Assembly (NCBI GenBank): GCA_937861125.1
Contig: CALMAY010000037.1
Span: 68,941-132,940, forward strand
Direction of reading: 5' to 3'
From: an uncultured bacterium
GTDB taxonomy: Bacteria; Patescibacteriota; Patescibacteriia; Magasanikbacterales; UBA922
DNA: 64,000 nt
The position numbers and the translations under genes are program-made. Of this stretch, positions 2,022-55,488 are shown piece after piece (position 1 is the first letter of the stretch; every line of letters starts with the position of its first letter). Under the pieces are notes generated by a model. The model saw nothing but the letters and a program-made list of their open reading frames with translations, did no database searches and was not told the origin of the DNA.

Positions 2022-3029
2022 ATGTCAGAATCACACCTTGCACATATCGTCACACACAAACACCAACTCGATCTTCGATTTGAAATCCTCCGATGGACTC
2101 GGGAATACTTTTGGTTAAACGGATTTACAGAGATAGAAACACCACTCCTCCTCCGTCTCCCTGGACAAGAACCATACCTCTCACCCATGCGCGTCACACT
2201 CCACAATGAAACAGGTAAGGAATATCTCGGATATCTGCACACCTCACCAGAATACACAATGAAAAAAATGTTAGCAGCAGGATATACAAAAATATTTTCA
2301 CTTGGAAAAGTATTTCGTGATTATGAAAGTTTTGGCGGTACACACAATCCTGAATTTACCATGATTGAGTGGTACCAAGCGAATGCAGATATGTACACGA
2401 TTATGGATGATGTAGAGGGACTTTTACAATATCTTGCAAAAGCAATTTCAAAGCACCAAGACACACACACCAACGTAATCACACCCTCTCGCTCACACAT
2501 GCGTGAACTGTGGAGTGAGTATGCGAATATCAATCTTGATCTCAATCTCACCCAAGAAACACTCTACAAAACATTGAAACAACGTGGACTCAACGTCACA
2601 CCCGACGAACCGTACGAAGATTTGTTCTACCGTATTTTCCTCAACGAAATCGAACCACACCTAGGCAAAAATGGCCCACAAATTGTACACCACTACCCAC
2701 ATCCAATGGCTGCCCTCTCCAAACATTCCACAGTCGATATCGGGTACGCAGAACGATTTGAAGTCTATTGGAACGGCATGGAACTCGGCAATGCCTTTAG
2801 TGAACTCACCGACCCGGTCGAGCAAAAAAACCGCCTAGTCGAAGAACAAAAACAACGCAAAAAGGCAGGAAAAGATGTCTATGACATCGATCAAGAGTTC
2901 ACCGACGCTCTCGAGCATATGCCACCATCAGGCGGTATTGCGATGGGTATCGACCGCATCGTCTCATGTCTGACATCTTGCCAAAAGATAGATGATATGC
3001 TAGTATTACCGGCATCGCTGCTCTTTTGA
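2022..3029 (+). CDS. epmA: EF-P lysine ligase (EpmA/PoxA/GenX, truncated class II LysRS paralog)
   Basis: Class II aaRS motifs are present: FRDYESFGGTHNPEFTMIEWY, ERFEVYWNGMELGNAFSEL, GGIAMGIDR. There is no anticodon-binding domain. It lies immediately upstream of efp. Confidence 0.8.
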   Translation: MSESHLAHIVTHKHQLDLRFEILRWTREYFWLNGFTEIETPLLLRLPGQEPYLSPMRVTLHNETGKEYLGYLHTSPEYTMKKMLAAGYTKIFSLGKVFRDYESFGGTHNPEFTMIEWYQANADMYTIMDDVEGLLQYLAKAISKHQDTHTNVITPSRSHMRELWSEYANINLDLNLTQETLYKTLKQRGLNVTPDEPYEDLFYRIFLNEIEPHLGKNGPQIVHHYPHPMAALSKHSTVDIGYAERFEVYWNGMELGNAFSELTDPVEQKNRLVEEQKQRKKAGKDVYDIDQEFTDALEHMPPSGGIAMGIDRIVSCLTSCQKIDDMLVLPASLLF

Positions 3030-3110
3030 TTGAGCAGAAGCTCCAATTAACAAATTCCAGTCTCAAACGTATTTTGAAACTGGCAACTGAATACTTGAAA
3101 CTATTATTAT

Positions 3111-3680
3111 ATGGGAGACACTACAGACATTCGCAAAGGTGCGGTCATCCGCCACAACAACGACCTCTACGTCGTCACTTTTTGCCAATTCGTCAATCCA
3201 GGCAAAGGAACAGCATTTACCAAAACAAAACTCAAAGGAATCAGTAATGGCAAAGGAACTGAAATAACATATAAAAGTGGTGAAACAGTAGACGTCGTCG
3301 ACGTATATCGCAAATCAATGCAGTACCTATACAAAGGTGATATTTCTTATTCTTTCATGGATCAAGAAACGTTTGAAACAGTAGAAATTGATGCAGACAT
3401 CGTCGGTGATGATGGGCAGTACCTCAAAGAAGGACTTGATGTCGTCGTCGCACTTCATGACGGTCGCGCAGTCGCCATTGAGCTCCCAAAGAAAATCACC
3501 TACACTGTCATCGAAGCAGCTCCGGCTGTAAAGGGTGATACCGCAGGTGGCAACGTCACCAAAGAGGTCAAGCTCGACAACGGACTGATGATGCACGTAC
3601 CAATCTTTATTACTGAGGGTGAGAACATCACTGTGAACACTGAAACTGGTGAGTACGGTGGACGTGCAATTGAAGACTAA
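3111..3680 (+). CDS. efp: Translation elongation factor P
   Basis: 189 aa. N-terminus reads IRKGAVIRHNNDLYVV...NPGKGTAFTKTKLK, with the conserved Lys loop. Confidence 0.95.
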   Translation: MGDTTDIRKGAVIRHNNDLYVVTFCQFVNPGKGTAFTKTKLKGISNGKGTEITYKSGETVDVVDVYRKSMQYLYKGDISYSFMDQETFETVEIDADIVGDDGQYLKEGLDVVVALHDGRAVAIELPKKITYTVIEAAPAVKGDTAGGNVTKEVKLDNGLMMHVPIFITEGENITVNTETGEYGGRAIED

Positions 3681-3713
3681 TTGAAAAATTCAAAACACCA
3701 AGAAACAAGATAC

Positions 3714-3743
3714 AAAAAATCCGCTGATGAGGCGGGTTTTTTG
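3714..3743 (+). terminator. Intrinsic terminator after efp
   Basis: A-run, then hairpin CCGC-tgatgag-GCGG(G), then a T6 run. Confidence 0.65.
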
Positions 3744-3758
3744 TCCTCTGCACAGGCA

Positions 3759-3786
3759 TTGACAACTCTCTCTTTACTAAGATAAG
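3759..3786 (+). promoter_or_regulatory. Cassette promoter P1 (decayed copy)
   Basis: CATTGACA followed by (CT)4 TTTAC TAAGAT. It aligns with P2-P4, but the -35/-10 spacer is only 13 nt. Confidence 0.35.
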
Positions 3787-3824
3787 CTTGTGTTCATCTG
3801 TTTCACAAGAACAAAGGAAGGAAA

Positions 3825-3911
3825 ATGGAAGATATCTGGACTACACTCAAACTCGTACTTTTGCTTTTTTTCATTCTTGCTGTATGGTCAGCAATCAGAG
3901 CAGGAGACTAG
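3825..3911 (+). CDS. 28-aa hydrophobic peptide (MEDIWTTLKLVLLLFFILAVWSAIRAGD)
   Basis: The ATG is preceded by AAAGGAAGGAAA. One TM-like segment. It sits between cassette promoter P1 and terminator T1 and is below the ORF-track cutoff. Confidence 0.45.
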   Translation: MEDIWTTLKLVLLLFFILAVWSAIRAGD

Positions 3912-3931
3912 TACGAGAAGGGCATGAACAG

Positions 3932-4004
3932 CCGTTCGACCCTCGCGCATAGTTTCCAAAATTATTGGTTACTGTGTGGGAGGATTTGGTCGAGCGGTTT
4001 TTTT
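3932..4004 (+). terminator. Conserved bulged terminator hairpin T1
   Basis: Lower stem is CCGTTCGACC/GGTCGAGCGG, upper stem is CTCGCGCA/TGTGGGAG, with a 3'-side bulge GATTT and a T7 run. Confidence 0.75.
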
Positions 4005-4026
4005 GTTATTTATCCACTTCTAGGCA

Positions 4027-4055
4027 TTGACAACTCTCTCTCTCTTTGCTAGAAT
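4027..4055 (+). promoter_or_regulatory. Cassette promoter P2
   Basis: TTGACA (4027-4032), a 17-nt spacer made of A(CT)6TTGC, then TAGAAT (4050-4055). Confidence 0.7.
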
Positions 4056-4082
4056 GAGTTTTCCTTCAACCACCAGGTAAAC

Positions 4083-4175
4083 ATGATAGCAGCCATCATC
4101 ATCGCCTACTCAGTAGGCTTCGGATCCGGGCTGCTGCTCGGATTTGGGATTTGTTTAATTTTTGTCAAAAGATGA
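4083..4175 (+). CDS. 30-aa hydrophobic peptide (MIAAIIIAYSVGFGSGLLLGFGICLIFVKR)
   Basis: Short ORF between P2 and T2. The RBS is weak. A G8 tract (4180-4187) follows the stop. Confidence 0.4.
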   Translation: MIAAIIIAYSVGFGSGLLLGFGICLIFVKR

Positions 4176-4196
4176 GGCAGGGGGGGGAACGAACAA

Positions 4197-4269
4197 CTGC
4201 TCGACCCTCACGCAATATATTCAATATCTGTTGAGTGTGCTGCGGGAGGATTTGGTCGAGCGGTTTTTT
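4197..4269 (+). terminator. Conserved bulged terminator hairpin T2
   Basis: Lower stem is CTGCTCGACC/GGTCGAGCGG, upper stem is CTCACGCA/TGCGGGAG, with bulge GATTT and a T6 run. Confidence 0.75.
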
Positions 4270-4273
4270 GTTT

Positions 4274-4591
4274 CTACAAACTCAACACAAAAAACACCAC
4301 CGCCACCTGCATACAAAAAATAAGAAGAAAAATGGTTTGGAACGAACCTTTTTTTGTTTTGTGACGAAAGAATTTCATCGCCGTAAGTGCTCCAAGCGAT
4401 CCACCGACGAGAGAAAGAAACCACAGCACTTTTTCTGGTGTGCGACGTGTTTGGAGTTGCGCTTGGAGTTTATCAAGACCGAACCAAAAGAATGTCAGCA
4501 CGTTGATTGATGCGAAATAAATAATAGCAATTTGGTGCGTTAACGGAAGTTCAAAAAACATATACAACTTTTGACTATTAACAATTGACAA
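4274..4591 (-). CDS. DUF1294 family membrane protein
   Basis: Motifs RRTPEKVLWFLSLVGGSLGA and FRHKTKKGSF. The start may instead be Met11 (4561). Confidence 0.7.
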   Translation of the reverse strand: MSIVNSQKLYMFFELPLTHQIAIIYFASINVLTFFWFGLDKLQAQLQTRRTPEKVLWFLSLVGGSLGALTAMKFFRHKTKKGSFQTIFLLIFCMQVAVVFFVLSL

Positions 4592-4638
4592 TTAACTACT
4601 GATATTTGGGTTAATTGTCACAAGTCAATTGTTAATTG

Positions 4639-5046
4639 TTACAATATCCCAAATACAAACGTCACCAACGAATAACTCCCAAGCAACGCCGTAATCCCAA
4701 TCCCTGCCCACAGCATCATTCCAAGAGCCTCTTTTTGCACGTCTTCTTCACCTTGTGACAACATAAATCGAACACCTGCATATATGATAATACACAACGC
4801 CAGCGCACCCAAAAACCCAAGAGCATACCCAATACTACGCCCAATCAAAGTCTGTACTTGCGTAGTACCATCACCACGAATTCCTGTCTTATTGAGTCCA
4901 GCCAATTCATTAGTAGGAAAGTTTTGAATTACTTCAAGCGTTGGAGTCGCCGTCTCAGCAAACACAACGTTTGGAGCGAAAATAAAAACAAAAATGAAAC
5001 AAAAATGAAACAAAAAAATAATATAGTTATTGTTTAATTTACGCAT
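4639..5046 (-). CDS. Small secreted membrane protein with TrbC/VirB2-like (T4SS-pilin-like) architecture
   Basis: Start moved to MRKLNNN. It has a signal-like N-terminus ending VVFAE, then two C-terminal hydrophobic helices (IGYALGFLGALALCIIIYAG / LWAGIGITALLGSY). The family assignment is not verified. Confidence 0.45.
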   Translation of the reverse strand: MRKLNNNYIIFLFHFCFIFVFIFAPNVVFAETATPTLEVIQNFPTNELAGLNKTGIRGDGTTQVQTLIGRSIGYALGFLGALALCIIIYAGVRFMLSQGEEDVQKEALGMMLWAGIGITALLGSYSLVTFVFGIL

Positions 5047-11424: not shown

Positions 11425-11440
11425 ACTAGTCTAAAAATAC

Positions 11441-11468
11441 AAAAAACCGCTAAATCTAGCGGTTTTTT
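11441..11468 (+). terminator. Intrinsic terminator after nrdB
   Basis: A6, hairpin CCGCTA-aatc-TAGCGG, then T6. Confidence 0.8.
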
Positions 11469-11490
11469 GTTATTTATCCACTATCAAACA

Positions 11491-11517
11491 TTGACAACTC
11501 TCTCTCTTTGCTATAAT
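11491..11517 (+). promoter_or_regulatory. Cassette promoter P3
   Basis: TTGACA, a 15-nt spacer A(CT)5TTGC, then TATAAT. The upstream block GTTATTTATCCACT is shared with P2. Confidence 0.7.
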
Positions 11518-11573
11518 CAGCTGTTCCTCATGCAATTCGACAATTCCGTCGAAGAGGGACGTAAGAAGAAACA

Positions 11574-11831
11574 ATGAATCCTGGTCCTGATGACGTCGTG
11601 GCATGGGTGTGTCTTCTGGTCATCCTCTGTGGTGTCGTGGGCGGGTTGGTACACGCCTACACCCAAAACAATCACTTATGGGAACAGTTGATCGACAGCA
11701 CCCCCGAAGAAAAAAAGGGGGTCATTGAAGAAAGACGGAAAGAAAGCACACACACTACAACTAGTACCTGGTCGACTGTACTCATCGCTTTCATTGTCCT
11801 CTTTTTTGTACGCGCTGGCTGCATCGCGTAA
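11574..11831 (+). CDS. 85-aa two-TM small membrane protein
   Basis: An ORF-track entry lying between P3 and T3. It has N- and C-terminal hydrophobic helices and a charged middle. Confidence 0.55.
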   Translation: MNPGPDDVVAWVCLLVILCGVVGGLVHAYTQNNHLWEQLIDSTPEEKKGVIEERRKESTHTTTSTWSTVLIAFIVLFFVRAGCIA

Positions 11832-11877
11832 AGGGCCGCCCCTGGTAGGCTCGCCCACCGAGTTTCGGCACAATCAA

Positions 11878-11947
11878 CCGTTCGACCCTCGCGCAATATA
11901 TTTACTTTGTGAATATATTGCGGGAGGATTTGGTCGAGCGGTTTTTT
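11878..11947 (+). terminator. Conserved bulged terminator hairpin T3
   Basis: Lower stem is CCGTTCGACC/GGTCGAGCGG, upper stem is CTCGCGCAATATATT/AATATATTGCGGGAG, with bulge GATTT and a T6 run. Confidence 0.75.
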
Positions 11948-12191
11948 GTTATCTAAATAATACCCACTAAACACGTTCCCTCCTCTCGTAAAGGAGGGAC
12001 AGGGAGGAGTTACACTCACTATCTGGCACACGATAAACGCTACAGACACCCCTAACCCTTCCCTACTAAGGAGAAGAACGTATTTAGTTTATTTTGATAC
12101 AAAACACACTTCATACATCACAAACAAAATATTATCTTCTATACGAAATACGTTGTACGAAATACACCAAAAATGGTACAATACACGCACT

Positions 12192-20931: not shown

Positions 20932-23900
20932 TTACTCAGTGACAGGTTCTTCTGTAGGTGAATCCTGTACTGGAGGAGTTTCTTCAGGCACGACGATGTC
21001 AGTTACCATAGGTGTTTCATCGGGTACCACCACCTCTTCTGGAACAGTCACAACCTCTTCATCACCTGTTTCAACAATTACCTCCTCTACCACTTCTTCA
21101 CTCAATTCATTTTGAACCTCTTCTCCAGCACCTTCTACAGCAGAAGGTTCATCGCCTTCTGGCTGTACAGGACTATTGTCATCTTCAACCACTTGACCCC
21201 CAACCAATCGCTTGGTAATCACCACCCAATCAAATGTCGCACTACTTGAACCGTCCCGCAGTTCTCGCACCACAAATCCATCCGCACTCTTGTCTGTCAC
21301 ATAGACACCATTCGCCTCTCCTGTCAATGTGATGGAGACACGCATCTCAGTGTTTGTATCAATCAAACTTTTATCACCATCTTCAAACAAAATAGTAGCT
21401 TGTCCATTTTGCAGCTGTCCACTGCCAGATAGAACATAGTCACTATCTTCTGACTGTACACCATACAATGTTTTTGTCTCACCACCGACAACCTCAACAC
21501 GTGATACAAAACGACCATGTTCATCAATTGACCAAGTATCACTTACACTAGAAATAGATGCTACATCAAATAAAGAATAACCACCGAGATCCAAATCGCC
21601 CCCAACCCAGTCCAATGTGCCACCTTGCCCCTGAGAAACAGTAAGCGCGTCAATTTGATCTTGTTGCTCTTGAATTGCTTTAGTGAGGAATGGAATCAGA
21701 CCAATTTGAGACAGGGTCTTGTATCCATTAGCACCGGTACCAACGAGACGTGGAAATAGCGCTTCTACTTCTTGAGCAATAAATCCATAATTTACTTCTC
21801 CACTTGGATCGGTATTCCAATTATATGTAACTGGGTTGAGCTGCATAACAGCATCAAGGGTGGATCCCATCACAGTGATGTTGGTTTTGAGATTGCGATC
21901 AGACGTACAAGAAAAGTCACCATCACTTGGATCCACTGTACAAGTAGCATCAGTATCGGTAAAGGCAGCGACGATACCGTCAGATGTGCGTACCGTATGA
22001 AGAAGATATGATGGTGATGTTGTATTAATACCCACAAATCCAGTGTCCAACACACGAATACGTTGATTTCCAGCACCATCAGCAAGGATAATGTTATTAG
22101 ACACATCCGAAGAAACACTTACAGACGCACCTATAATTGTGTTGTACGAGCCACTCATAATTCCACCACCACTTGCTACACCCACTACCGTATTAAATGA
22201 TCCTGAGACCAAATTAATCAACGTATTATATCCCAAACCAACATTATAATCACCAGTTTCGTTTGATACCATAGAAGCATCTCCAAATGCACTATTATAC
22301 TCACCAGAAGTATTTGCCTCCAACGCATTGGACCCAAACGCAGCGTTTTTATTTCCATTTAACGTATTAAACAATGCTCGTACACCAAATGCAGAGTTTT
22401 TTGATCCATTATCATTATTTGCCAGCGCCTCAGATCCAAATGCAGAGTTTTGCTCACCTATATTTACTTGCAGTGCACTATTTCCAAACGCACTATTATT
22501 ATCCGAAGATATATTTTGATTGAGTGCATTTGCACCAAATGCAGTATTATATGCACCTAATGTATTTGCAGACAAAGATCCATATCCAAAACCAGAATTA
22601 AAAGAACCTTCAGTATTTACAGATAATGTACCAATACCAACAGCACTATTGTATTGTCCTGTAGTGTTACTTTGTAATCCGCCGAATGTGACATTGGTAG
22701 AAAAACCACCACCACCCAAACCAACAGCAATACCATTTATACTTACATCGGTAATAAAATTAACCTCACTATTGAAAAATGCACGACCATTTACACCCAA
22801 TTGATCTTCAATATAGACATCATTTCCACCATCCAACAAAAACCCTCCATCGACGATGGATTCCCCTGACGCACCCACCAGTACACTACTAATAAATGTA
22901 GAAGTACTTCCAATTTGATATACAAACCCATCAATCACGAGCCCTGGATTTGTTTCTGATGCCCAATCACCCCACAATGTACTTGTACCTACACCAACCA
23001 ATTGTTTCTCACTATCAATACTTAAAGACCAAATATCATCAGCATACAAGGTTGACGTACTATTAGATACTAAAAATTGTGCGCCTTGAAAATATGCACC
23101 TCCATACAAATCACTTTCGTCATTATATTGTGATGTAAAAATGAAATTACCACCCGCAGCACCCTCACTCAAAAAATTTATGTTACCAATACCATTATTC
23201 CCATCAAAAGAAATTTCACCTGTTTGTACCCCAGGATAAGACAAAATATCATCTCCTGTAAACACAATACTGTCTTGCCCTAACACAATCGAATCAGCAG
23301 AGGAGTTAGAAGTGGTTGCAACTCGAATTGTTCCAGAAACCATAACAGTACTCACATGAGCAGTATCGTATGTACCAATACTAACTACACCTGTGTCAAA
23401 ATAAATATCACTCCCACTAGTTGTCCACACCCCGTCAGGACTCAAACAAACCCCAGCAATAGAAAAACATCCAGACGCAATATCAATACTTCCACCAAAT
23501 GTTGAAGTGGATGTTCCTAACACAGAGACCTGCTGCGTTTCCACTAAACCAGTAAGACCATTGATAGTAACAGTACCACCATCATCAATTCCATTACTAA
23601 AATACAACTTACCATAGAGCCCAGACTCTTCAGAACCAAGCCAACCATCAACAAACCCACCATCCAACGCAGTTAGCATAGTAAATCCAAATGCAGGGTA
23701 AGACAAATTATTTGCATAGCCAACAAGACCAGCCCCTTGGCCGCTATTTTCAGTTGTACCAATCAAATTTAATATACCCAATTTACCTCCCGAGGTTATC
23801 TCACCAATATCAATACCCACATAATTATCTGGATAAATACCAGAAAGATCTCTCAACTGAATTGTATTGTTTACAAAACTTGCATTACCACCAAATGTAG

Positions 23901-25752
23901 AGGTGCCTGTACCAGCAACATCCAAAATTCCATCAGCATATATATTACTATTAAACCCAGCATCACCATGAACATACAGATCATTCCCATTCATCACAAA
24001 AGAGCCACTTGCTATTGCCTCAGTACCCGCACCCAATAAAAAATCATTTAACAAATACGAATCTTCCGATGTACTACCCGATATATATGCACCAAGACTT
24101 CCACCCCCAGCACCAATCACAATAGAGCCAGCACCAACAGATGGAGTGGCGCCACCTAAAGTAAGTTGGGGACGATTGGATGTACTCACAGAGAATGTAG
24201 CAGCATAACCAGTAGTCATCCCTGGTATAGTCGTGGTAGATATAGGATATAGCACCACAGCCGGACCAAGGTTTGGATTTGAACTCATAGCACGAAAGAC
24301 GCCCGCAGAACCACTAAGTCCAGTACCACTATCGACAGTGCTGATAGACGTACCCAATGAAGTATCTACATATGTTTTTACACTACCACCAGCTAGTGTA
24401 CTAGTTGCCGAAACAAACATATCACCAGACACGGCAAGATCATACATAGGACTTGTTGTGTTGATACCAACATTACCAGAACTAAAATAGATATCAGATC
24501 CAGCAGTAGTCCACTGCGAACTCCCACCAGAGATACAAGTACCATTTACCGAAAAACATTTACCACTCGCCAAATCAATACTACCAGCAAAAGTGGAAGT
24601 ACCAGTGCCAGCGACATCTAAAATACCATCAGTGAAGATATTTCCGTGGATTCCCATATCACCTTCGACATATAAATCATCGTCAGACACCGCAAATGAT
24701 CCATTTGCAATAGATTCAGTATTTGCACCAATTTTAAAGCTATCCATAATCCTGGACTTATTGCGCCCATCTCCCAAAAAGAAATAGGTTGTCCCTGTTT
24801 CATCTGCAAAATTGAGTGCAGACCCAGTATCCAACGCTTCTACAGCAAGCACCTCATTCCCTAGACCATTACTCATACGCAAGGCACCATTGATCTGTGA
24901 ACCACCAATGGTGATAAGAGCAGTTCCATATGGATTAAATATGGGTCCATAGGTAGCAAGCATAATTTCATGTGAATTCTGCCCCATTTGATTTAATGTG
25001 AGGTATGTACCTATATACGTGGAAGTATTTCCATGCAATTGAAGACTACCACCAGGCATGGCAGTACCCAAACTACCAGCAGAAAATCCATACATGGTTT
25101 CACCATAATAATTCGTTACATTTCCAACTTGTGCATATCCACCCCCAAACGTCGTCGTATTAAACGCAAAACTCCCATCAATATCAGACATTGGGATATA
25201 GGTAGTTGATTGTGGAGTTGATGTAGCTTCTACTCCATTGAGATATGATGAGTTGACAGCGTACGGGCTAGCAGTGAGTCTCTTTCTTGGGGAGAGTGTG
25301 GTGCCATCTACGATGATTTCAAGATAGAGTTCACTGTTGTCTGAGAAGATGGTTGGGTCAAGTGTATTGGTGTCAGTATCTCCGAGATTGATAGAGAAAA
25401 TACCTGCTGTAGGAGTAATCATGATAGTACCAATAGTTGGGAGTGTCCCTGCAGCAGTATAGAGTGCTGTGCCACCAGAGTCAGCGTCATAGATGGTAAA
25501 GGACATGGCTTTGGTGGTGGTGACAGAGGCACCATCTTCAAGGAGTTTTCCTTGGTAGGTAATAATACTTGGTGGTGTCGCAGAGTCTACTGAACGAGAA
25601 AACCAGACAACAGAGAAAAGAAGACTAAACGAAAAAAGAAAAATAAAAAACCAAGAAGAAAGAGTGTTCTTGTGTGTAAGAATGTGTGGTGATGTATTGT
25701 TACAATTTTCTCGATCCATGTGTGTATATACAAGAATACTAACCAGAGTCAT
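20932..25752 (-). CDS. Giant (1606 aa) surface fibre protein, tail-fibre-like, with YadA-head-like NSAFG repeats and an S74 intramolecular-chaperone motif
   Basis: An N-terminal TM/signal, an internally repeated G/S/T-rich beta region, and about 12 NSAFG-type repeats. The motif SDRNLK...YGFIAQEVEALFP...LIPFLTKAIQEQQ lies at about nt 21639-21903. The tail is acidic and E/V/P-rich. Confidence 0.85.
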   Translation of the reverse strand: MTLVSILVYTHMDRENCNNTSPHILTHKNTLSSWFFIFLFSFSLLFSVVWFSRSVDSATPPSIITYQGKLLEDGASVTTTKAMSFTIYDADSGGTALYTAAGTLPTIGTIMITPTAGIFSINLGDTDTNTLDPTIFSDNSELYLEIIVDGTTLSPRKRLTASPYAVNSSYLNGVEATSTPQSTTYIPMSDIDGSFAFNTTTFGGGYAQVGNVTNYYGETMYGFSAGSLGTAMPGGSLQLHGNTSTYIGTYLTLNQMGQNSHEIMLATYGPIFNPYGTALITIGGSQINGALRMSNGLGNEVLAVEALDTGSALNFADETGTTYFFLGDGRNKSRIMDSFKIGANTESIANGSFAVSDDDLYVEGDMGIHGNIFTDGILDVAGTGTSTFAGSIDLASGKCFSVNGTCISGGSSQWTTAGSDIYFSSGNVGINTTSPMYDLAVSGDMFVSATSTLAGGSVKTYVDTSLGTSISTVDSGTGLSGSAGVFRAMSSNPNLGPAVVLYPISTTTIPGMTTGYAATFSVSTSNRPQLTLGGATPSVGAGSIVIGAGGGSLGAYISGSTSEDSYLLNDFLLGAGTEAIASGSFVMNGNDLYVHGDAGFNSNIYADGILDVAGTGTSTFGGNASFVNNTIQLRDLSGIYPDNYVGIDIGEITSGGKLGILNLIGTTENSGQGAGLVGYANNLSYPAFGFTMLTALDGGFVDGWLGSEESGLYGKLYFSNGIDDGGTVTINGLTGLVETQQVSVLGTSTSTFGGSIDIASGCFSIAGVCLSPDGVWTTSGSDIYFDTGVVSIGTYDTAHVSTVMVSGTIRVATTSNSSADSIVLGQDSIVFTGDDILSYPGVQTGEISFDGNNGIGNINFLSEGAAGGNFIFTSQYNDESDLYGGAYFQGAQFLVSNSTSTLYADDIWSLSIDSEKQLVGVGTSTLWGDWASETNPGLVIDGFVYQIGSTSTFISSVLVGASGESIVDGGFLLDGGNDVYIEDQLGVNGRAFFNSEVNFITDVSINGIAVGLGGGGFSTNVTFGGLQSNTTGQYNSAVGIGTLSVNTEGSFNSGFGYGSLSANTLGAYNTAFGANALNQNISSDNNSAFGNSALQVNIGEQNSAFGSEALANNDNGSKNSAFGVRALFNTLNGNKNAAFGSNALEANTSGEYNSAFGDASMVSNETGDYNVGLGYNTLINLVSGSFNTVVGVASGGGIMSGSYNTIIGASVSVSSDVSNNIILADGAGNQRIRVLDTGFVGINTTSPSYLLHTVRTSDGIVAAFTDTDATCTVDPSDGDFSCTSDRNLKTNITVMGSTLDAVMQLNPVTYNWNTDPSGEVNYGFIAQEVEALFPRLVGTGANGYKTLSQIGLIPFLTKAIQEQQDQIDALTVSQGQGGTLDWVGGDLDLGGYSLFDVASISSVSDTWSIDEHGRFVSRVEVVGGETKTLYGVQSEDSDYVLSGSGQLQNGQATILFEDGDKSLIDTNTEMRVSITLTGEANGVYVTDKSADGFVVRELRDGSSSATFDWVVITKRLVGGQVVEDDNSPVQPEGDEPSAVEGAGEEVQNELSEEVVEEVIVETGDEEVVTVPEEVVVPDETPMVTDIVVPEETPPVQDSPTEEPVTE

Positions 25753-25774
25753 TGGCAGAATTCTCCTTCATAAG

Positions 25775-25806
25775 TATACCACAAAAAAACACGCGAGAGT
25801 ATGCGT
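25775..25806 (-). terminator. Terminator of the three-gene surface operon
   Basis: Minus strand: A5, hairpin ACACGC-atactctc-GCGTGT, then T7. It is followed by the TGgTATACT extended -10 (25773-25781) of the next gene. Confidence 0.75.
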
Positions 25807-25830
25807 GTTTTTGTGAATAACGTAATACAA

Positions 25831-28800
25831 TTACGATAGCTTTGTTGGTGAAACATCTGAAGGCGCCTCCCCTTTCTTCAAACCTACATCTTTTACCACC
25901 AAACCATTCTCTTCTTTTACCACCACAGAATCTGTTTTTTCTGGAACATATCCCTCTTTTTCAAACGTAACATAGTAATCATTTGGTCCAACCAAAAATG
26001 AATACCGCCCTTTACTATCTGTTACTTGCGTCGCAACTAACTTATCAAACTGTTTGCTAAATAAACGTGCCACAGCTCTCCCGACAGGCTGTGCCGTCCC
26101 ATGTTCATAGACCAACCCCCACCCTTTTGGTTTCTTTGGCCACACGTATCGTAAAAAGAGTACAAACAAAACGGTGTGAATGACTAAAAAGACAACAGTA
26201 AGTACCGATGGCGTAATATAGACAGAGATGACTGCACCCACAATACTAACAATCGCCACAGTATGTTGCAATCGACGCAACCATTTTTCCAACACAATTC
26301 GCTTGATCGTTTTTTCTTTTGCGTCCACTGGATCCACTGGAATATTTGGTGTGATTTGAGTATCTTTTTCATCGACTCGAATTGACTCACCATGGTAAAT
26401 ATCAAGAAATGATCCGTCTTCTTTTACACTTGAAAGTAGATGAGTCGGAAACACATACCCCTGTTTAAACACCTCAATTAAGTACTGCCCAGGCTCTACC
26501 ATAAAAAGATATCGCCCCTTGGCATCAGTCACACGAGACTGAACCACTCGTCCTGTTGTCTTGTCTATCAGGCGGATAGTCGCCAAATCAATCGGAAGTT
26601 TATTTAAACTGTTATACACCACACCCCAAGCCTGACGCTTCCTTTTTCCCACCAAATACAGTGGCTGCAAAAAGAGAAAACGAAGTAACGGTAACAAAAT
26701 TGAAAACAATGATGGAATCAATGTGGCAGCTGAGACACCAACAAACGTCGGTGCAACAACTGTTTGTACCGCTTCTTCCACACGTGGATCATCCTTTTTT
26801 TCCAGTACATCCCGTGCTCCTTGCAGTGCGGTATTGAGTACAAACCCGATCGTCTCCACTGGTGTTTCTGGTAGGGCCAGCAGTTCAAGTGAACGATTAA
26901 TAACATGATCTGTCACTTGAAATGAAAACGTCTTTCGCTGTGCATACCCACCTTTATCTACAACGAGTGTGTACACTCCGTTTGGAACAACAAAACCATA
27001 GGTACCAGAAGAATCTGTACGAAATGGATTACTCTGACGAAATGATGTAATGTCAAATACTGTATCTCCTGCATACAAAGAAACATTCGCATCAGCAAGA
27101 CGTACACGCTCTGTGTCGGAAATAATACCAAACGGAGCACTCTCGACTTGAAACGGTACAACATCTACTAAACCTTCTGCATAAAATATTTCAATCGTCG
27201 CGTCATATCGACCAACAGGAGGAAATAATACATCCGAACGATACATTCCGTCAGCTTCTCGTGTGAGAGCATATCGCTGTCCACGCAACACCAATACCAA
27301 TGTTGTTGACGGTGTAATATGATGGAGACTTCCCTCAGAGATACCGACAGTCAACTGATCTCCCGTTAAACTTTTTACGACCCCCTGTGTTGGCACCACC
27401 TCAATAGTGCGTTCAGCAATCCAATACCTTGTTGTGGTAACATGATCCGTCACGGTTACGTTTGGTGAATTATATTCATCATTGTCTGTCGCAGAAGAAC
27501 AGCCTGGGTCTTGTAAATCGACCAATCCATCTCCATCATTATCAGCTCCATCTGAACAAGCAAATACACCACGACATGCTGGCTCTCCAGCACAGTCAGG
27601 ATCAGAACAATCAATCAGACTATCACCATCATCATCAACACCATTGGTGCACTGCTCTACACCATTTGGTGGCACACCAGTACACCCAGACACATCAAAT
27701 ATACAGGCACCACCACAACTCAGCGATCCACCAGCATACCCACGACTCACACATGATGCACCACCCAGATCAGAGCCATCACATTGCTCAACCCCGCTGC
27801 GGATCACATTATCACCACATATCGCTGCCTGACACAAATTTGTACAACTATCATTTTGATTGTTATTTCCGTCATCACACGTCTCACCTACATTGACAAT
27901 ACTGTTGCCACAAGTAGCCAGCGCATTCGTACACGATGATACATTAAATGTGCACGAATTACTACAACTCAGTGATCCGCCATCATAGCCACGACTCACA
28001 CACGTCGCACCATTCAAGTTCGTGCCATCACACTGCTCTCCACTTTCAACAATATTATTTCCGCACACTGATGTTTCCACTACACCACTTGGCGTCGCAT
28101 TTGCACAGACACCAGCACTTGCATTGCCAGATGTGTCATACACAGAGAGACGATAATAATATGTTGTACTATTTGTCAGTCCAGCATGTTGTATACTCAA
28201 CTGAGCAACAGATGCAATGTTTTGTAATAACGCCCCCGCACCACGTGCAGGACAGCTACCAAGTGACCATTCGATACGGTAGTAGGCAAAATCACTCACA
28301 CTCTCACTATATTGCCATGACAAATTGTTAGCAGCAACCACACCATTTGCCGTGAATGAAGATACATCTGGTGGCGGTGTCGAATCTGACAACGTAATAA
28401 ATGGACACTCAGCTGTTCCTATCTCATTATTGGAATCAATACACGTAATACGACACTGATACGCCATATTTGGTGTCAGTCCACTAAGTGTGGATTGATA
28501 TGAACCACTGACGACACCGATCGAGATATAATTGCCAACACCATATCCAAGTGTACAACTGACAATACTTTTTGGGATGGTTGTCGAAGCATCCCAAACA
28601 ATCTGAGCACTAGTCTGTGTGGTTGAGGTAGAAATCAACGTAACAGTAACAGACGAGGACTCACTAATAGTAACAAAAGACCCAGTCTCACTATCACTAT
28701 TACCGGATGTATCACTACAGGAAATGTGATAAAAATATTCTGTGGAAGCACTTAAACCTGCCAAAGAGACAGTATATGTTCCCACCACAGTACCACTTGT

Positions 28801-29190
28801 TCCATAACCGTCTGTTAACCCATACTCAAATGAACACGATGAGACACTCACGTTATCGCTCGCACTCCAAGAAACACTCGATGTAGTAACACCGACAACT
28901 TCCACCACATTTGAGATAGATGGATTGGTGGTATCCCCGCCTCCACCACCACAAGTGCGTGTCGTACATGACAAACTACATGTTGCTGGACAACTACTTC
29001 CATTGCTTCCACCATTGTCACAGGCTTCGACACCTTCCTCTATACCATTGCCACACACCGCACCAGTCCCAACTATTGCCTCAATCGTCACATCAGTTGA
29101 TGTTGTATCAGCAGAAACAAAAGAGACAAAGCCAACAAATACAGAGACAATGAGAAAGAAAAAGGATGTACCAAATAGAATACGTTTCAT
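25831..29190 (-). CDS. 1119-aa multidomain membrane-anchored surface protein
   Basis: Signal peptide (MKRILFG...), then CGNG..E.CD cysteine-rich repeats. These are followed by FN3-like modules, DxDGD metal-binding-like repeats, and three carboxypeptidase-regulatory-like domains (DAKGRY/DSKGRY) interleaved with TM helices. The start ATG overlaps the upstream stop (ATGA). Confidence 0.8.
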   Translation of the reverse strand: MKRILFGTSFFFLIVSVFVGFVSFVSADTTSTDVTIEAIVGTGAVCGNGIEEGVEACDNGGSNGSSCPATCSLSCTTRTCGGGGGDTTNPSISNVVEVVGVTTSSVSWSASDNVSVSSCSFEYGLTDGYGTSGTVVGTYTVSLAGLSASTEYFYHISCSDTSGNSDSETGSFVTISESSSVTVTLISTSTTQTSAQIVWDASTTIPKSIVSCTLGYGVGNYISIGVVSGSYQSTLSGLTPNMAYQCRITCIDSNNEIGTAECPFITLSDSTPPPDVSSFTANGVVAANNLSWQYSESVSDFAYYRIEWSLGSCPARGAGALLQNIASVAQLSIQHAGLTNSTTYYYRLSVYDTSGNASAGVCANATPSGVVETSVCGNNIVESGEQCDGTNLNGATCVSRGYDGGSLSCSNSCTFNVSSCTNALATCGNSIVNVGETCDDGNNNQNDSCTNLCQAAICGDNVIRSGVEQCDGSDLGGASCVSRGYAGGSLSCGGACIFDVSGCTGVPPNGVEQCTNGVDDDGDSLIDCSDPDCAGEPACRGVFACSDGADNDGDGLVDLQDPGCSSATDNDEYNSPNVTVTDHVTTTRYWIAERTIEVVPTQGVVKSLTGDQLTVGISEGSLHHITPSTTLVLVLRGQRYALTREADGMYRSDVLFPPVGRYDATIEIFYAEGLVDVVPFQVESAPFGIISDTERVRLADANVSLYAGDTVFDITSFRQSNPFRTDSSGTYGFVVPNGVYTLVVDKGGYAQRKTFSFQVTDHVINRSLELLALPETPVETIGFVLNTALQGARDVLEKKDDPRVEEAVQTVVAPTFVGVSAATLIPSLFSILLPLLRFLFLQPLYLVGKRKRQAWGVVYNSLNKLPIDLATIRLIDKTTGRVVQSRVTDAKGRYLFMVEPGQYLIEVFKQGYVFPTHLLSSVKEDGSFLDIYHGESIRVDEKDTQITPNIPVDPVDAKEKTIKRIVLEKWLRRLQHTVAIVSIVGAVISVYITPSVLTVVFLVIHTVLFVLFLRYVWPKKPKGWGLVYEHGTAQPVGRAVARLFSKQFDKLVATQVTDSKGRYSFLVGPNDYYVTFEKEGYVPEKTDSVVVKEENGLVVKDVGLKKGEAPSDVSPTKLS

Positions 29191-30759: not shown

Positions 30760-30912
30760 CATTTTAAGCGTTTTTTATACAACAGGTAGTATATTCTATC
30801 ATCTTGTGGATAAAATAAGGTTATTTTTATAGATTATATTGTACGACATTGATAAATATCTTATTATATTGTTTAATTATGTAAGCTATTAAAATTTAGT
30901 GTGGAAATACTA

Positions 30913-36923: not shown

Positions 36924-37015
36924 AATATATACAAATGTTACTTGTTAACAGTTACTAGTTAATAGTCGGTTAGATGTGTTTGTGTGAGCGTGCCCCTCAC
37001 ACGCCCACACCGCCG

Positions 37016-37210
37016 CTACTCTGCGGCGAGCCTCTCCTTCACCCCCTTCTGTTGAAAAAACTCCCGAACCTCCTCCACAGTCGCATTACGACCATTTCGG
37101 AGGTGAAACTCGGACAGGAACATCTCGAGCACGTCGATGTTCCAGCCCGCCTCTCGCGCCTCACGGCGCAGCTCGAGGTACTCCTCGAGCGTCATCTGCT
37201 CTGGCCACAT
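37016..37210 (-). CDS. 64-aa hypothetical protein in a GC-rich islet
   Basis: ATG 37210 is preceded by AAGGAGGTG. Sequence: MWPEQMTLEEYLELRREAREAGWNIDVLEMF... The local G+C is far above that of the flanks. Confidence 0.5.
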   Translation of the reverse strand: MWPEQMTLEEYLELRREAREAGWNIDVLEMFLSEFHLRNGRNATVEEVREFFQQKGVKERLAAE

Positions 37211-44184: not shown

Positions 44185-44195
44185 TACATGTACAC

Positions 44196-44226
44196 AAAAA
44201 ACCACCCAAAGAACGGGTGGTTTTTT
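44196..44226 (+). terminator. Terminator after the ATP-grasp gene
   Basis: A5, hairpin CCACCC-aaagaac-GGGTGG, then T6. Confidence 0.8.
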
Positions 44227-44242
44227 GTTCCACTTTTAAGCA

Positions 44243-44271
44243 TTGACATCTCTCTCTCTCTTTGCTAATCT
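44243..44271 (+). promoter_or_regulatory. Cassette promoter P4
   Basis: CATTGACA, a 17-nt spacer T(CT)6TTGC, then TAATCT (weak -10). Confidence 0.5.
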
Positions 44272-44302
44272 AATAATTAACCAGCTAGAGCCACGGAGGA
44301 AT

Positions 44303-44602
44303 ATGAGCAAATCATATGTGAACGTCAAAATCGACCATCTTGATTTCTTCAATCTTTTCGAGGAATTTCTAGAAACGGAAAACCAATACGTTCGCATCTA
44401 TCGGCGACCCATTGGACAAGAAGGTGGGAGTGGAAGGTTTACAATCAGAGGGAAAGAGTACCCATCGATCAAACTCTTTAGACATAGAGAATACTGCACA
44501 ATCGGTGACCACGAAGAATTCGCAACACGAGTTCATGAAGTAGTTGCTGCTTTTCTGCAGTTTCTCGACAAGAGAGGCATAACGTACACCATACTTGACT
44601 AA
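44303..44602 (+). CDS. 99-aa hypothetical soluble protein (cassette 4 cargo)
   Basis: ATG 44303 is preceded by GGAGGA. No recognisable motif. Confidence 0.6.
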   Translation: MSKSYVNVKIDHLDFFNLFEEFLETENQYVRIYRRPIGQEGGSGRFTIRGKEYPSIKLFRHREYCTIGDHEEFATRVHEVVAAFLQFLDKRGITYTILD

Positions 44603-44630
44603 TCTCATAGTAGGCGTTGTGGAATAAAAA

Positions 44631-44706
44631 TCCACCCGATCCTGCCAATGTATTCGAATGATCGAATGTATTGGGAGGAGGCTAACGGGTGGGTTTTTAT
44701 TTTTTG
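44631..44706 (+). terminator. Bulged terminator hairpin T4 (structural homolog of T1-T3)
   Basis: Lower stem is CCACCCG/CGGGTGG. The upper 17-bp stem is CCTGCCAATGTATTCGA/TCGAATGTATTGGGAGG with one G/G mismatch. There is a 3' bulge AGGCTAA, then T5AT7. Confidence 0.7.
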
Positions 44707-55432: not shown

Positions 55433-55488
55433 CATGTAGCACAAAACATGTAACAAATATAAATGTGTTACATGTTATATGTTACATG
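55426..55488. repeat. Four copies of CATGTAACA (two direct, two inverted) between rnpA and yidD
   Basis: Direct copies are at 55426-55434 and 55447-55455. Inverted copies (TGTTACATG) are at 55466-55474 and 55480-55488. The array overlaps the rnpA stop and the yidD start. Confidence 0.75.

Follow-up and report, generated by a model that had tools for sequence, protein, structure and literature searches.

The 64,000-nt stretch of DNA analysed here (the window) carries four copies of a compact unit in which a conserved promoter module and a conserved terminator hairpin enclose unrelated small orphan genes. Two of the four units stand after efp, one follows nrdB and one lies at 44.2 kb, and family members occur also in three related metagenomic genomes. 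Judging from sequence features, the units are interpreted, with moderate confidence, as a lineage-specific family of self-contained expression cassettes that would be shuffled by recombination at their conserved terminator and promoter ends. Their nearest counterpart in appearance is the regulatory cassette shuffled by recombination, a kind of element hitherto known from T4-type phages only. The setting is the chromosome of an uncultivated bacterium of the Magasanikbacteria (CPR), where the units adjoin housekeeping genes and the context includes dnaA, dnaN, polA, ruvB, nrdAB, type IV pilus genes and tRNAs. The tandem units after efp had been picked out by the first-pass annotation, and all the features it described were found in place. 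Its view of a conserved shell around a variable cargo was borne out as well: more copies exist in the genome and its relatives, the cargo DNA is statistically unrelated, and the proteins are ORFans. It had missed two more units in the window, and family members were found in the relatives L002/L015, L007 and L008.

The slot occupied by the tandem pair is anchored upstream by efp (3111..3680, plus strand), which encodes elongation factor P (Pfam EFP_N/EFP/Elong-fact-P_C) and whose homologues are named Magasanikbacteria EF-P. The simple efp terminator, AAAAAATCCGC-TGATGAG-GCGGG-TTTTTTGT (3713..3744, plus strand), forms the left boundary of the slot. Unit 1 opens with the promoter CATTGACA-A(CT)4TT-ACTAAGAT (3757..3783, plus strand). 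Its cargo, the 28-aa ORF MEDIWTTLKLVLLLFFILAVWSAIRAGD (3825..3911, plus strand), is preceded by AAGGAAGG and contains one TM-like segment, and its 3' module (3926..4004, plus strand) consists of a type-A bulged hairpin (stem 3932-3997) and T7. This terminator (T1) passes directly into the unit 2 promoter (P2) via TTTTTTTGTTATTTATCCACT, within a composite of terminator tail, AT-rich block TTATCCACT and promoter (3998..4055, plus strand). The promoter part (4025-4055, plus strand) reads CATTGACA-A(CT)6TT-TGCTAGAAT, with a 17-nt spacer and an extended -10 element. The cargo of unit 2 is a 30-aa hydrophobic ORF, MIAAIIIAYSVGFGSGLLLGFGICLIFVKR (4083..4175, plus strand). The 3' shell then starts with a G8 run (4180..4187, plus strand), at a position where unit 1 has GGG and the L015 cassette GGGG, and continues with a 3' module (4191..4269, plus strand) made of a type-A bulged hairpin (stem 4197-4263) and T6. 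The stop codon of a convergent DUF1294 gene (4274-4561, minus strand) lies 5 nt from this module.

Two further siblings complete the set. Unit 3 (11489-11947) follows the simple nrdB terminator (11439..11470, plus strand), whose stem and tail, AACCGCT...AGCGGTTTTTTGTTAT, echo the base of the type-A hairpin. It comprises the promoter CATTGACA-A(CT)5TT-TGCTATAAT (11489..11517, plus strand), an 85-aa ORFan with two TM-like segments (11574..11831, plus strand) and a type-A bulged hairpin with T6 (11872..11947, plus strand). Unit 4 (44241-44706) follows the simple terminator of an ATP-grasp gene (44194..44228, plus strand), whose stem CCACCC...GGGTGG echoes the base of the type-B hairpin. Here the promoter CATTGACA-T(CT)6TT-TGCTAATCT (44241..44271, plus strand) precedes a 99-aa soluble alpha/beta ORFan (44303..44602, plus strand) and a type-B hairpin with a U-tract (44626..44706, plus strand), which has the type-A architecture in another sequence and keeps GGAGGA. 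Chance cannot account for this repetition: three occurrences of the 20-mer GGGAGGATTTGGTCGAGCGG were counted against 0.00 expected, and the 16-mer CATTGACAACTCTCTC occurs three times exactly and once with one mismatch, against 0.86 expected at up to three mismatches. An assembly artefact is excluded, since the same arrangement is present in the independent assemblies L005 and L006 from other samples. No further copies were found in about 20 kb of extra flank on the same contig.

The promoters share one form, a near-consensus sigma-70 site written as CATTGACA-(CT)4-7-TTTGCTAnnAT, followed by a short leader with a Shine-Dalgarno (SD) sequence. In unit 2, TTGACA-17 nt-TAGAAT matches the sigma-70 consensus at 11 of 12 positions. 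The -35 and extended -10 elements of the cassettes are equal to those of the rpsT and rpmH promoters, and the (CT)n spacer was found to be cassette-specific. The unit 1 promoter is probably the weakest of the family, because its spacer measures just 13 nt and TG is missing; neither this spacer nor the 15-nt one of unit 3 would suit a promoter that depends on its -35 element. The block upstream of the promoter is AT-rich (TTTTTTGTTATTTATCC), and in six of seven units the -35 element is located 12-22 nt 3' of a terminator T-tract. Control by DnaA through the TTATCCACT block was also considered and rejected, the block being only an 8/9 match and the genuine intergenic boxes here being TTATCCACA. 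The conserved ends extend over about 90 nt on the 5' side and about 85 nt on the 3' side. Pairwise identity of the 5' modules amounts to 81-86% in five of the six pairs, over alignments of 76-92 nt, and to 76% in the remaining pair. In the repeat family D2, the T1-P2 junction and the junction between the nrdB terminator and unit 3 show 89% identity over 45 nt; unit 2 resembles the distant unit 3 more than the neighbouring unit 1. Moreover, unit 3 and the L015 cassette have a common leader up to the ATG, after which the ORFs are unrelated.

At the other end of each unit, a hairpin of 61-67 nt is directly followed by a U-tract. It is built of a base of 7-10 bp and a 3'-side bulge of 5-6 nt beside an invariant GGAGGA, followed by a short helix that is capped by an apical helix of variable sequence. 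The six hairpins compared have this one architecture: the base stem carries compensatory changes (G-C to A-U, U-A to C-G, U.G to C-G), and the apical helices, wholly different in sequence, are all fully paired. The 3' arms have 26 identical nt in common. The 5' arm had been described earlier as CCGyTCGACC; the arm is present, and unit 2 reads CTGCTCGACC, so the consensus becomes CyGyTCGACC. The folding energies lie between about -39 and -44 kcal/mol, and the z-scores between -7 and -10 (unit 1, -37.5 to -40.9 kcal/mol, z -8.8; unit 3, -43.8 kcal/mol, z -10; type-B hairpin of unit 4, -39.9 kcal/mol, z -7.8). When all T-run-adjacent hairpins in the window were ranked by stability, the four cassette hairpins took the top four places. 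Folded as the sense strand, the hairpins gain 6-16 kcal/mol in stability over the antisense strand and have 1-5 G.U pairs, compared with 0-1; this much greater stability points to an RNA terminator or stabiliser. The combination of a stable GC-rich hairpin on the sense strand and an immediate U-tract is that of an intrinsic (Rho-independent) terminator, and termination is predicted. The covariance model R1, built from type-A hairpins only, scored unit 1 at 91 bits, unit 3 at 93 bits and L007 at 46 bits, and it also detected the type-B hairpin of unit 4 (33 bits, E 1e-6). The hairpin is a candidate new structured 3' RNA element.

The space between these ends is filled by one ORF per unit, of 28-150 aa. 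In all seven units the ORF lies in the sense direction behind an SD sequence, and the set includes ORFs of 60, 66, 85, 99 and 150 codons. Five of the seven cargos are small membrane proteins with TM-like segments. Although the flanks are 76-100% identical, the cargo DNA is unrelated between units: of the 21 pairs, 20 fall within the range of the shuffle null and one lies marginally over its null maximum. All three cargo proteins tested were strict ORFans; the 85-aa cargo of unit 3 hit only itself among 1.84 billion representatives, and the 99-aa cargo of unit 4, which is present on contigs of up to 329 kb, only itself among 5.8 billion proteins. No significant match to the cargo proteins was obtained in Pfam, PHROGs or PADLOC. 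The AlphaFold (AF2) model of the 99-aa cargo has a pLDDT of 65, and Foldseek gave no match to it in the PDB at E <= 0.001. For the 28- and 30-aa ORFs, openness is weak proof of coding, as about a quarter of random sequences that long stay open; their translation is presumed, and any function of the cargo peptides is likewise presumptive.

The behaviour of the units in relatives was followed in three genomes, two of whose contigs are short. The efp-DUF1294 slot contains two cassettes in the window; in L007, whose EF-P is 94% identical, a different one is present, and in L008 (89%) yet another. No empty-site allele was seen among the sampled genomes. Different cassettes thus occupy one syntenic slot in three genomes with 89-100% identical EF-P, and the breakpoints lie at terminator T-tracts. 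Between the window and L007 the orthologous flanks align as far as the T-tract of the efp terminator and break after it; at this slot they realign at the cassette's own GCGG-T6-GTT. The indel and replacement differences among the window, L007 and L008 are bounded by the shared motifs. The first-pass annotation had looked to conservation of the micro-ORFs at homologous loci as a mark of genuine units. They are not conserved there, because the whole cargo is replaced and not because the unit is spurious. Direct repeats are also found at cassette borders: unit 3 is bordered by the 16-nt repeat AGCGGTTTTTTGTTAT, present in the nrdB terminator and at the end of the unit, and unit 4 by AACGGGTGG and a T-tract on both sides, part of each repeat being trivial because the T6GT tail is widespread in terminators here. 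This tail is all that the other terminators in the window have in common with the cassette borders. The cassette of L002/L015 has the promoter, leader and hairpin of the window units together with a 150-aa cargo in a sufB/nifS context, and no terminator copy stands upstream of it in L015. The shell was not found in the more distant relatives L011-L014 (EF-P 72-75% identical). When genome and metagenome collections were scanned with the 20-mer of the 3' arm, one true relative, L002, was recovered; two other matches, inside secA-like and enolase coding regions of high-GC organisms, were due to chance. Viral contigs scanned with the hairpin arm and the promoter gave no match, nor did units 1 and 2 in blastn searches of phage and plasmid collections. 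Among the origins proposed by the first-pass annotation, a cassette-type duplication mechanism was one of three. The cassette part of that proposal fits best of the three; simple local duplication does not hold, since unit 2 is closer to unit 3 and related genomes hold other cassettes in the slot.

In the favoured interpretation, each cassette would be an autonomous mini transcription unit composed of a promoter, a leader, one orphan gene and a hairpin with its U-tract. The promoter would be of the near-consensus sigma-70 type with an extended -10 element, marked by the (CT)n spacer, and the gene would encode one small orphan protein, mostly a membrane peptide with one or two TM segments. Transcription from this promoter is predicted, and the hairpin and U-tract would terminate it and probably shield the 3' end of the mRNA too. 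The transcripts of units 1 to 4 would start near 3790, 4062, 11524 and 44278 and stop in the U-tracts near 4000, 4266, 11945 and 44700. The conserved ends may serve as portable homology. Recombination between such ends, and with the look-alike simple terminators of resident genes, would move the cassettes and could lead to insertion, deletion, tandem stacking and swapping in terminator-proximal intergenic slots. Since recombination would take place at the shell ends, the cargo would arrive with its own promoter and terminator, and the neighbouring genes would be left undisturbed. The presumed mobility would depend on homologous recombination, possibly via excised circles.

Two other readings were raised by the first-pass annotation and fit less well. 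The first concerns type I toxin-antitoxin-like loci, in which the 28- and 30-aa peptides would be membrane toxins, with their mRNA curbed by structure or antisense RNA and with regulatory untranslated regions. The size and single-TM character of the peptides are like those of type I toxins, the units are in tandem, and each is predicted to be a strong, insulated transcription unit. However, no antisense promoter was detected above chance, as the lone minus-strand TGCTATCAT equals the expected background and the consensus scan gave no minus-strand promoter site at all, and the leaders of units 1 and 2 are unstructured. The only Rfam match to a toxin-antitoxin RNA family, OrzO-P, fell on the plain efp and nrdB terminators at 25 and 23 bits, far below the gathering score of 60, no toxin family was matched in Pfam, PHROG or PADLOC, and siblings with the same shell encode soluble proteins of 99 and 150 aa. 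Repeated copies within a type I family encode mutually homologous toxins, whereas the cargo peptides of the units are unrelated. Such loci are therefore considered unlikely, and a toxin-like role of the two micro-peptides is possible only as a guess at their function. The other reading takes the units as small non-coding RNAs of the OmrA/OmrB sort, about 210 nt long, whose ends are conserved while the centre varies and in which the micro-ORFs would be incidental. Transcripts of about 210 nt with a common 5' start and terminator are predicted for units 1 and 2, and ORFs of 28-30 codons may be open by chance. This reading is very unlikely in view of the SD-preceded ORF that spans the cargo in seven of seven units, as chance openness is implausible for the five of 60-150 codons. 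Moreover, the variable centre has no conserved seed, and Rfam searches gave nothing but tRNAs at the gathering score; relaxing the cut-off to E 1 added only sub-threshold hits, most of which resemble terminators (OrzO-P, rimP leader, IS128).

A site-specific system would treat the hairpin as a folded single-stranded DNA site (attC or an IS200/IS605-type end), served by an unlinked recombinase with the crossover in GCGG-T6-GT. Such a system would account for a hairpin whose architecture is conserved over its sequence, with an asymmetric bulge, a variable terminal helix and strand asymmetry, as well as for the short motif that bounds cassettes on both sides and for their tandem stacking. It appears improbable, because the 3' ends read GTTATTT, GTTTCTA and GTTATCT and not the attC GTTRRRY, the 5' side reads GAACAAC and not RYYYAAC, and the genes annotated over about 84 kb include no integrase, transposase or reverse transcriptase. 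The cassettes are, in addition, dispersed, each with its own promoter and U-tract, and the invariant U-tract and the G.U pairs suit an RNA terminator. The units could also be a paralogous family of small genes diverged past recognition, or a case of convergence on the best promoter and terminator of the genome. The -35 and extended -10 elements do fit the general strong-promoter consensus of the genome, and the T6GT tail is found genome-wide. Nevertheless, this origin is extremely improbable, as the identity exceeds functional consensus: it takes in the (CT)n spacer, the start of the leader, 26 nt of the 3' arm, and both the bulge and the G-rich stretch that leads into the 3' shell. Cargos of 28-150 aa with DNA similarity at null level stand beside flanks of 76-100% identity, and the leader shared by unit 3 and L015 ends at the ATG. 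As an addition to the cassette model, slippage of (CT)n in the spacer (13, 15, 17, 19 nt) might toggle the cassettes by phase variation. The spacers differ by whole CT units only (n = 4, 5, 6, 6, 5, 7), but n is constant per locus across independent assemblies and samples (L004/L005/L006, L009/L010, L002/L015), frequent slippage would call for tracts longer than 4-7 dinucleotides, and spacing is less critical given an extended -10 element; such toggling is given little probability. Other candidates were dropped: a tRNA-fragment or attachment-site remnant, suggested by the loose likeness of the 3' arm to the 5' end of a type II tRNA (ARAGORN and Rfam detect nothing); DNA-uptake-sequence terminators, as the motif is confined to the cassettes; and hypermutation of the DGR type, as the cargos differ in length and have nothing in common.

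The strict conservation of GGAGGA and the bulge is left unexplained by a role as plain terminator or as homology. The invariant core might be recognised by a factor acting in trans, for instance a recombinase that works on the folded strand, an RNA-binding protein or the ribosomal anti-SD, and the shell would then be a dedicated cassette system; this extension is rather unlikely. If it were true, a CPR bacterium with a reduced genome would capture, express and turn over orphan membrane proteins that are newly born or newly acquired, as a cellular 'ORFan nursery' whose insertions at terminators follow a logic of their own. CPR (Candidate Phyla Radiation) organisms contain many unexplained small ORFan and membrane proteins. 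If the cassette interpretation is true, conserved promoter and terminator modules render orphan genes portable and instantly expressible, and a testable route is provided by which such genes may be gained, stacked and replaced beside essential genes without disturbance. The (CT)n promoter together with the bulged GGAGGA hairpin (covariance model R1) gives a signature for harvesting cassettes and their cargo from metagenomes.

Several known systems share part of this organization. With integron cassettes and attC sites the units have in common a variable cargo, an imperfect bulged hairpin at the cassette end, structure kept over sequence and tandem stacking. However, the bases of the unit hairpin, GAACAAC...GCGGTTTTTTGTTAT/GTTTCT, lack R'/R'' core sites, the hairpin has the properties of an RNA element of the sense strand, and neither attI nor an integrase (among the genes annotated over about 84 kb) was found. 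Integron cassettes are arrayed and mostly promoterless, whereas the units are dispersed and have their own promoter and U-tract. Type I systems such as Ibs/Sib, Ldr/Rdl and Zor/Orz resemble the units in their very small hydrophobic peptides, in tandem copies and in the conservation of untranslated regions, but the peptides of the units show no relationship to each other or to known toxins, the units lack an antisense RNA gene, and sibling units encode soluble proteins. Phage morons are autonomous promoter-ORF-terminator insertions between two genes and are not defined by shared flanks. The units, too, stand alone between two genes with a sigma-70 promoter and an intrinsic terminator of their own; unlike morons, they have flanks that form a repeated conserved family, and they lie in a bacterial chromosome without prophage context.

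Putative mobile promoters (PMPs) are conserved promoter regions of 50-100 nt which are repeated within genomes at >=80% nt identity (Matus-Garcia et al., 2012, PMC3488235). The 5' modules of the units (76-86%, about 80-90 nt) come close to this definition, and the genes behind them are non-homologous; PMPs are defined by the promoter alone, whereas the units add a conserved 3' terminator module and a mini-gene that is consistently an ORFan. The promoter-early stem-loops (PeSLs) of T4-type phages, termed 'mobile regulatory cassettes' (Arbiol et al., 2010, PMC2839356; Comeau et al., 2014, PMC4122927), combine a sigma-70 promoter with stem-loop motifs that reach the SD sequence and start codon and flank ORFans, and the borders of indels and replacements that distinguish close relatives are marked by them (PMC2839356; PMC4122927). 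They differ from the units in location, being found in hyperplastic regions of phages and not on a cellular CPR chromosome among efp, nrdB, polA and sufB-type genes, and there is no sequence similarity between them. The stem-loop of the units is separate, longer (61-67 nt) and bulged, stands at the 3' end and has the GGAGGA/bulge core, and the promoter of the units has a (CT)n spacer. PeSLs have been shown to give rise to mini-circles; the units are known here from assembled sequence. The likeness nevertheless extends to the whole plan: a composite motif in which AT-rich DNA precedes a consensus sigma-70 promoter, with a terminator stem-loop, and which reaches the SD sequence and start codon; small ORFans flanked by these motifs; indels and replacements between close relatives that are bounded by them; and a cargo placed with its own promoter and terminator in harmless intergenic sites. 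If the cassette interpretation is correct, the mechanism of the hyperplastic regions of T4-type phages would also work in a cellular CPR chromosome.

Directly downstream of efp (3111–3680, with EFP domains), which ends in a short terminator (3713–3744), lie two consecutive units. Unit 1 comprises the promoter CATTGACAACTCTCTCTTTACTAAGAT (3757–3783), a 28-aa ORF (3825–3911) and a hairpin stem (3932–3997) directly followed by T7. The block TTTTTTTGTTATTTATCCACT joins its end straight to unit 2, which comprises a promoter (4025–4055), a 30-aa ORF (4083–4175), a G8 run (4180–4187) and a hairpin stem (4197–4263) directly followed by T6. Reading of positions 3000–5000 confirmed all elements listed by the first-pass annotation, with one correction: the hairpin arms are shared between the units, but the 5' arm of unit 2 is CTGCTCGACC, which differs from the consensus proposed for it. 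The sequence of both units was identical in independent assemblies of other samples. The first-pass annotation had also proposed a search for further copies, and this returned two more units in the window, as well as units in relatives. Unit 3 (11489–11947), located 3' of the nrdB terminator, repeats the junction block, the promoter and the hairpin but carries an 85-aa ORF with two transmembrane (TM) segments. Unit 4 (44241–44706), located 3' of an ATP-grasp gene, shares the promoter and encodes a soluble protein of 99 aa; its hairpin follows the same design in a different sequence. Neither the rest of the window nor about 20 kb of extra flank on the same 149-kb contig yielded a copy beyond these four. 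In the window the 3'-arm 20-mer was counted three times (0.00 expected), and the promoter 16-mer three times exactly and once with one mismatch (0.86 expected at up to three mismatches). The hairpins reach -39 to -44 kcal/mol, 7–10 SD under shuffles, and the four cassette hairpins are the most stable of all hairpins abutting a T-run in the window. The cassette repeats are beyond chance; the family is real, present in several copies and restricted to the lineage.

When public collections were scanned with the 3'-arm 20-mer, one true relative was retrieved, L002, of which L015 is a longer copy; two other matches, both inside coding regions, were due to chance. Promoter, leader up to the ATG and hairpin (identity 92%) are common to L002/L015 and unit 3. 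The L002/L015 cargo is a 150-aa ORF unrelated to that of unit 3, and the cassette lies antisense between sufB and a nifS-like gene. The best named EF-P matches were Candidatus Magasanikbacteria (CPR/Patescibacteria). The gene order epmA-efp-slot-DUF1294-bPH-ruvB is kept, and the content of the slot between efp and the convergent DUF1294 gene is different in every genome sampled. In the window (EF-P 100%) the slot holds units 1 and 2. In the relative L007 (EF-P 94%) it holds one cassette, whose promoter spacer differs, whose leader resembles that of unit 2 and whose ORF encodes 60 aa with two TM segments; its hairpin has the bulge, GGAGGA and compensated changes in the base stem (CCGCCCGG/UCGGGCGG). 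In the relative L008 (EF-P 89%) it holds one cassette with a (CT)7 promoter, a 66-aa ORF (one clear TM-like segment) and a hairpin of the unit 4 type. No shell was found in the efp slot of L011 and L012–L014 (EF-P 72–75%). When the window was aligned with L007, the flanks were about 90% identical; identity ends at the T-tract of the efp terminator and restarts just past the cassette GCGG-T6-GTT. As read from their sequences, the three genomes demonstrate cassette replacement at one syntenic slot.

Two further differences were noted in these relatives. L007 carries between its epmA-like gene and efp (4196–4447) a strain-specific, GC-rich ORF of 83 Cys/His-rich residues, which lacks the shell and has neither a counterpart in the window nor a recorded Pfam hit. 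In L008, about 150 nt of hairpin-rich extra DNA (2279–2435), matching no Rfam family, separates the efp stop from the terminator GTCGGGACGGA-T8. This terminator resembles the 3' arm of the L007 cassette hairpin, and therefore the extra DNA may be a decayed cassette.

The 5' module consists of CATTGACA, a (CT)4–7 spacer and TTTGCTAnnAT, and an extended -10 (TGnTAnnnT) is formed in most units. Its -35 and -10 parts are those of the rpsT and rpmH promoters, and therefore the cassettes are predicted to carry top-strength promoters of the housekeeping type. The (CT)n spacer, with lengths of 13, 15, 17, 17, 17 and 19 nt, is found only in the cassettes. Overall, the 5' modules are 76–86% identical. 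Conservation runs 10–15 nt into the leader and, within subfamilies (unit 3 with L015; unit 2 with L007), as far as the start codon; unit 3 and L015 also have in common a 5' stem-loop of two tiers, the inner stem of which is compensated.

The 3' module starts 7–45 nt past the stop codon with a run of three (unit 1), four (L015) or eight (unit 2) G residues, followed by AACGAACAAC, the hairpin and a closing U-tract. All six complete hairpins follow one plan: a base helix of 7–10 bp, a bulge of 5–6 nt on the 3' side only, a second helix of 3–4 bp that takes in part of the invariant GGAGGA, a 1x1 mismatch (in L007 a single unpaired base on the 3' side), an apical helix of 12–14 bp in total, broken in three copies by small internal mismatches, and a loop of 3–6 nt. 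The apical helix differs in sequence in nearly every copy with pairing retained, and changes in the base stem are compensatory (G-C to A-U, U-A to C-G, U.G to C-G). The covariance model R1, built from the four type-A copies alone (the form of units 1–3 and L002/L015), finds the hairpin of L007 (46 bits, E 2e-10) and, over its full length, the type-B hairpin of unit 4 (33 bits, E 1e-6). The cassette hairpins are one evolving RNA structure. Moreover, the sense strand is 6–16 kcal/mol more stable than the antisense strand and has 1–5 G.U pairs versus 0–1. The compensatory changes, covariance matches and sense-strand stability together point to selection on the transcribed strand, as a role as RNA terminator or 3' stabiliser would require. 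The GGAGGA/bulge core is not explained by a plain terminator role; a site for an RNA-binding factor, a ribosome contact, a processing site and a recombinase site are possibilities.

In all seven units the space between leader and 3' shell is filled by a sense ORF preceded by a Shine-Dalgarno (SD) sequence, and in five of them it spans 60–150 codons, far beyond chance openness. For the ORFs of 28 and 30 codons length alone is no guide; their coding plausibility is inherited from these siblings, and any biological role of the peptides would likewise be a prediction. The contrast of conserved shell and variable cargo, already described from units 1 and 2, extends to the family: the shell is repeated across units, whereas pairwise cargo DNA scores are at the level of shuffled controls on both strands, one of the 21 pairs lying slightly above its null maximum. 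Comparison of the cargos by tblastx gave nothing meaningful, and no match was found in Pfam, PHROG or PADLOC. Among 5.8 billion proteins or 1.84 billion representatives, the cargos of unit 4, L002 and unit 3 matched only themselves. TM-like segments occur in five of the seven cargos. For the unit 4 protein, AlphaFold run on the single sequence gave a generic alpha/beta fold, which no PDB entry matched significantly. GC content exceeds that of the respective genome in some cargos (0.50–0.58 vs 0.41–0.44) but not in those of units 1, 2 and 4.

Every chromosomal cassette is immediately preceded by a simple terminator, and the stem of that terminator recurs as the base of the cassette hairpin. For unit 3, the nrdB terminator AACCGCT...AGCGGTTTTTTGTTAT and the cassette end ...AGCGGTTTTTTGTTAT form a 16-nt direct repeat; for unit 4, the preceding terminator (CCACCC...AACGGGTGG-T6-GT) has its match in the cassette end AACGGGUGGG-U5. 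The remaining window terminators have only the T6GT tail in common. In distant relatives, the efp terminator CCGTTCG-TGATG-CGAGCGG-T6 (L012 10605–10635; L014 1569–1599) reproduces exactly the seven basal pairs of the type-A hairpin, U.G wobble included, which hints at sequence exchange between cassette hairpins and resident terminators. We lean towards reading the units as autonomous expression cassettes whose conserved terminator and promoter ends serve as recombination handles. A cassette between two similar terminator tails could be lost or excised by recombination between them, and a cassette, possibly circular, could enter wherever a terminator matches it in stem and tail. Such entry would regenerate the flanking direct repeats, and repeated events would stack units head to tail, producing the composite junction between the first terminator and the second promoter.

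The first-pass annotation had offered three explanations. Cassette-type duplication is retained in part: unit 2 is nearer to unit 3 than to its tandem neighbour unit 1 in both modules, which argues against simple local duplication and favours cassette-like exchange among dispersed copies. Type I toxin-antitoxin loci, the second, are improbable, since there is no antisense gene, the peptides are unrelated and sibling cargos are soluble. The third, small regulatory RNAs, is rather less probable still in view of the ORF in 7/7 units.

An integron-like, site-specific cassette system keeps a small probability through the conserved bulged architecture, but core sites are absent, no integrase is among the annotated genes, and U-tracts and promoters are present; we consider it about as unlikely as toxin-antitoxin loci. 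Phase variation through (CT)n stands no higher: the spacers differ among copies by CT units, but the CT number of each locus is identical in assemblies from different samples, and thus this comparison gave no sign of it. Ordinary paralogy or convergence is the least probable, because identity goes far past a functional consensus beside null-level cargo similarity.

The window is ordinary chromosome, with tRNAs, ruvB, nrdAB, polA, the type IV pilus genes pilBCMN, and dnaA, dnaN, rnpA and rpmH; no integrase, transposase or reverse transcriptase is among the genes annotated. Several other features were observed in it. The DnaA-box core TTATCCAC occurs eight times against 2.2 expected (4010, 7167, 11474, 30806, 37473, 43897, 48626, 53532). 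Five are full TTATCCACA boxes, all intergenic: three adjoin promoters, of rpsT (37473), at 48.6 kb and of dnaN (53532), and the others lie in the ruvB-nrdA intergenic region (7167, with two variant boxes) and at 30806. In units 2 and 3 the shared junction block contains an 8/9 variant, TTATCCACT, situated some 10 nt 5' of the -35 hexamer. Dense nested palindromes between the DUF1294 gene and a T4SS-pilin-like gene (4566–4644; TAACAATTGACAATTAAC.../GTTAATTGTCA...) and just downstream of rnpA (55425–55489; CATGTAACATG repeats) look like operator-type sites. Between an Orn/DAP decarboxylase gene and rpsT lies an orphan ORF of about 70 aa (MWPEQMTLEEYLELRREAREAGW...; 36980–37200, minus strand) that is GC-rich and has its own SD but no cassette shell; its GC of 0.58–0.60 is the window maximum. 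Two giant ORFs of 1606 and 1151 aa (20932–29286, minus strand) have domains of the phage-tail-fibre type (Peptidase_S74 chaperone, CarboxypepD_reg, weak phage_tail_N) and are probably surface or adhesion proteins rather than prophage. The interval from unit 3 to the pilB promoter contains pyrimidine-/purine-rich repeats (11975–12095; CCCTCCTCTCGTAAAGGAGGGACAGGGAGGAG ... CCCTTCCCTACTAAGGAGAAG).

Summarizing, the finding is not categorically new, and it offers a clean, testable case of how a reduced-genome bacterium packages and turns over orphan mini-genes. The recombination mechanism sketched above has been proposed, and partly demonstrated with mini-circles, for the promoter-early stem-loops (PeSLs) of T4-type phages. 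These motifs combine a sigma-70 promoter with a stem-loop and extend as far as the SD and start codon; they flank ORFans and lie at nearly all boundaries of the indels and replacements that distinguish sister phages (PMC2839356; PMC4122927). The 5' modules also nearly fit the definition given for putative mobile promoters (PMC3488235). However, PeSLs belong to phages, whereas the cassettes reside in a cellular (CPR) genome, have no sequence relationship to PeSLs, and differ from them in the (CT)n spacer and in the hairpin, which is a separate long 3' structure with a conserved GGAGGA/bulge core. The feature is best placed among regulatory cassettes of the PeSL or mobile-promoter type, set apart by its CPR chromosomal location and its distinctive structured 3' element.
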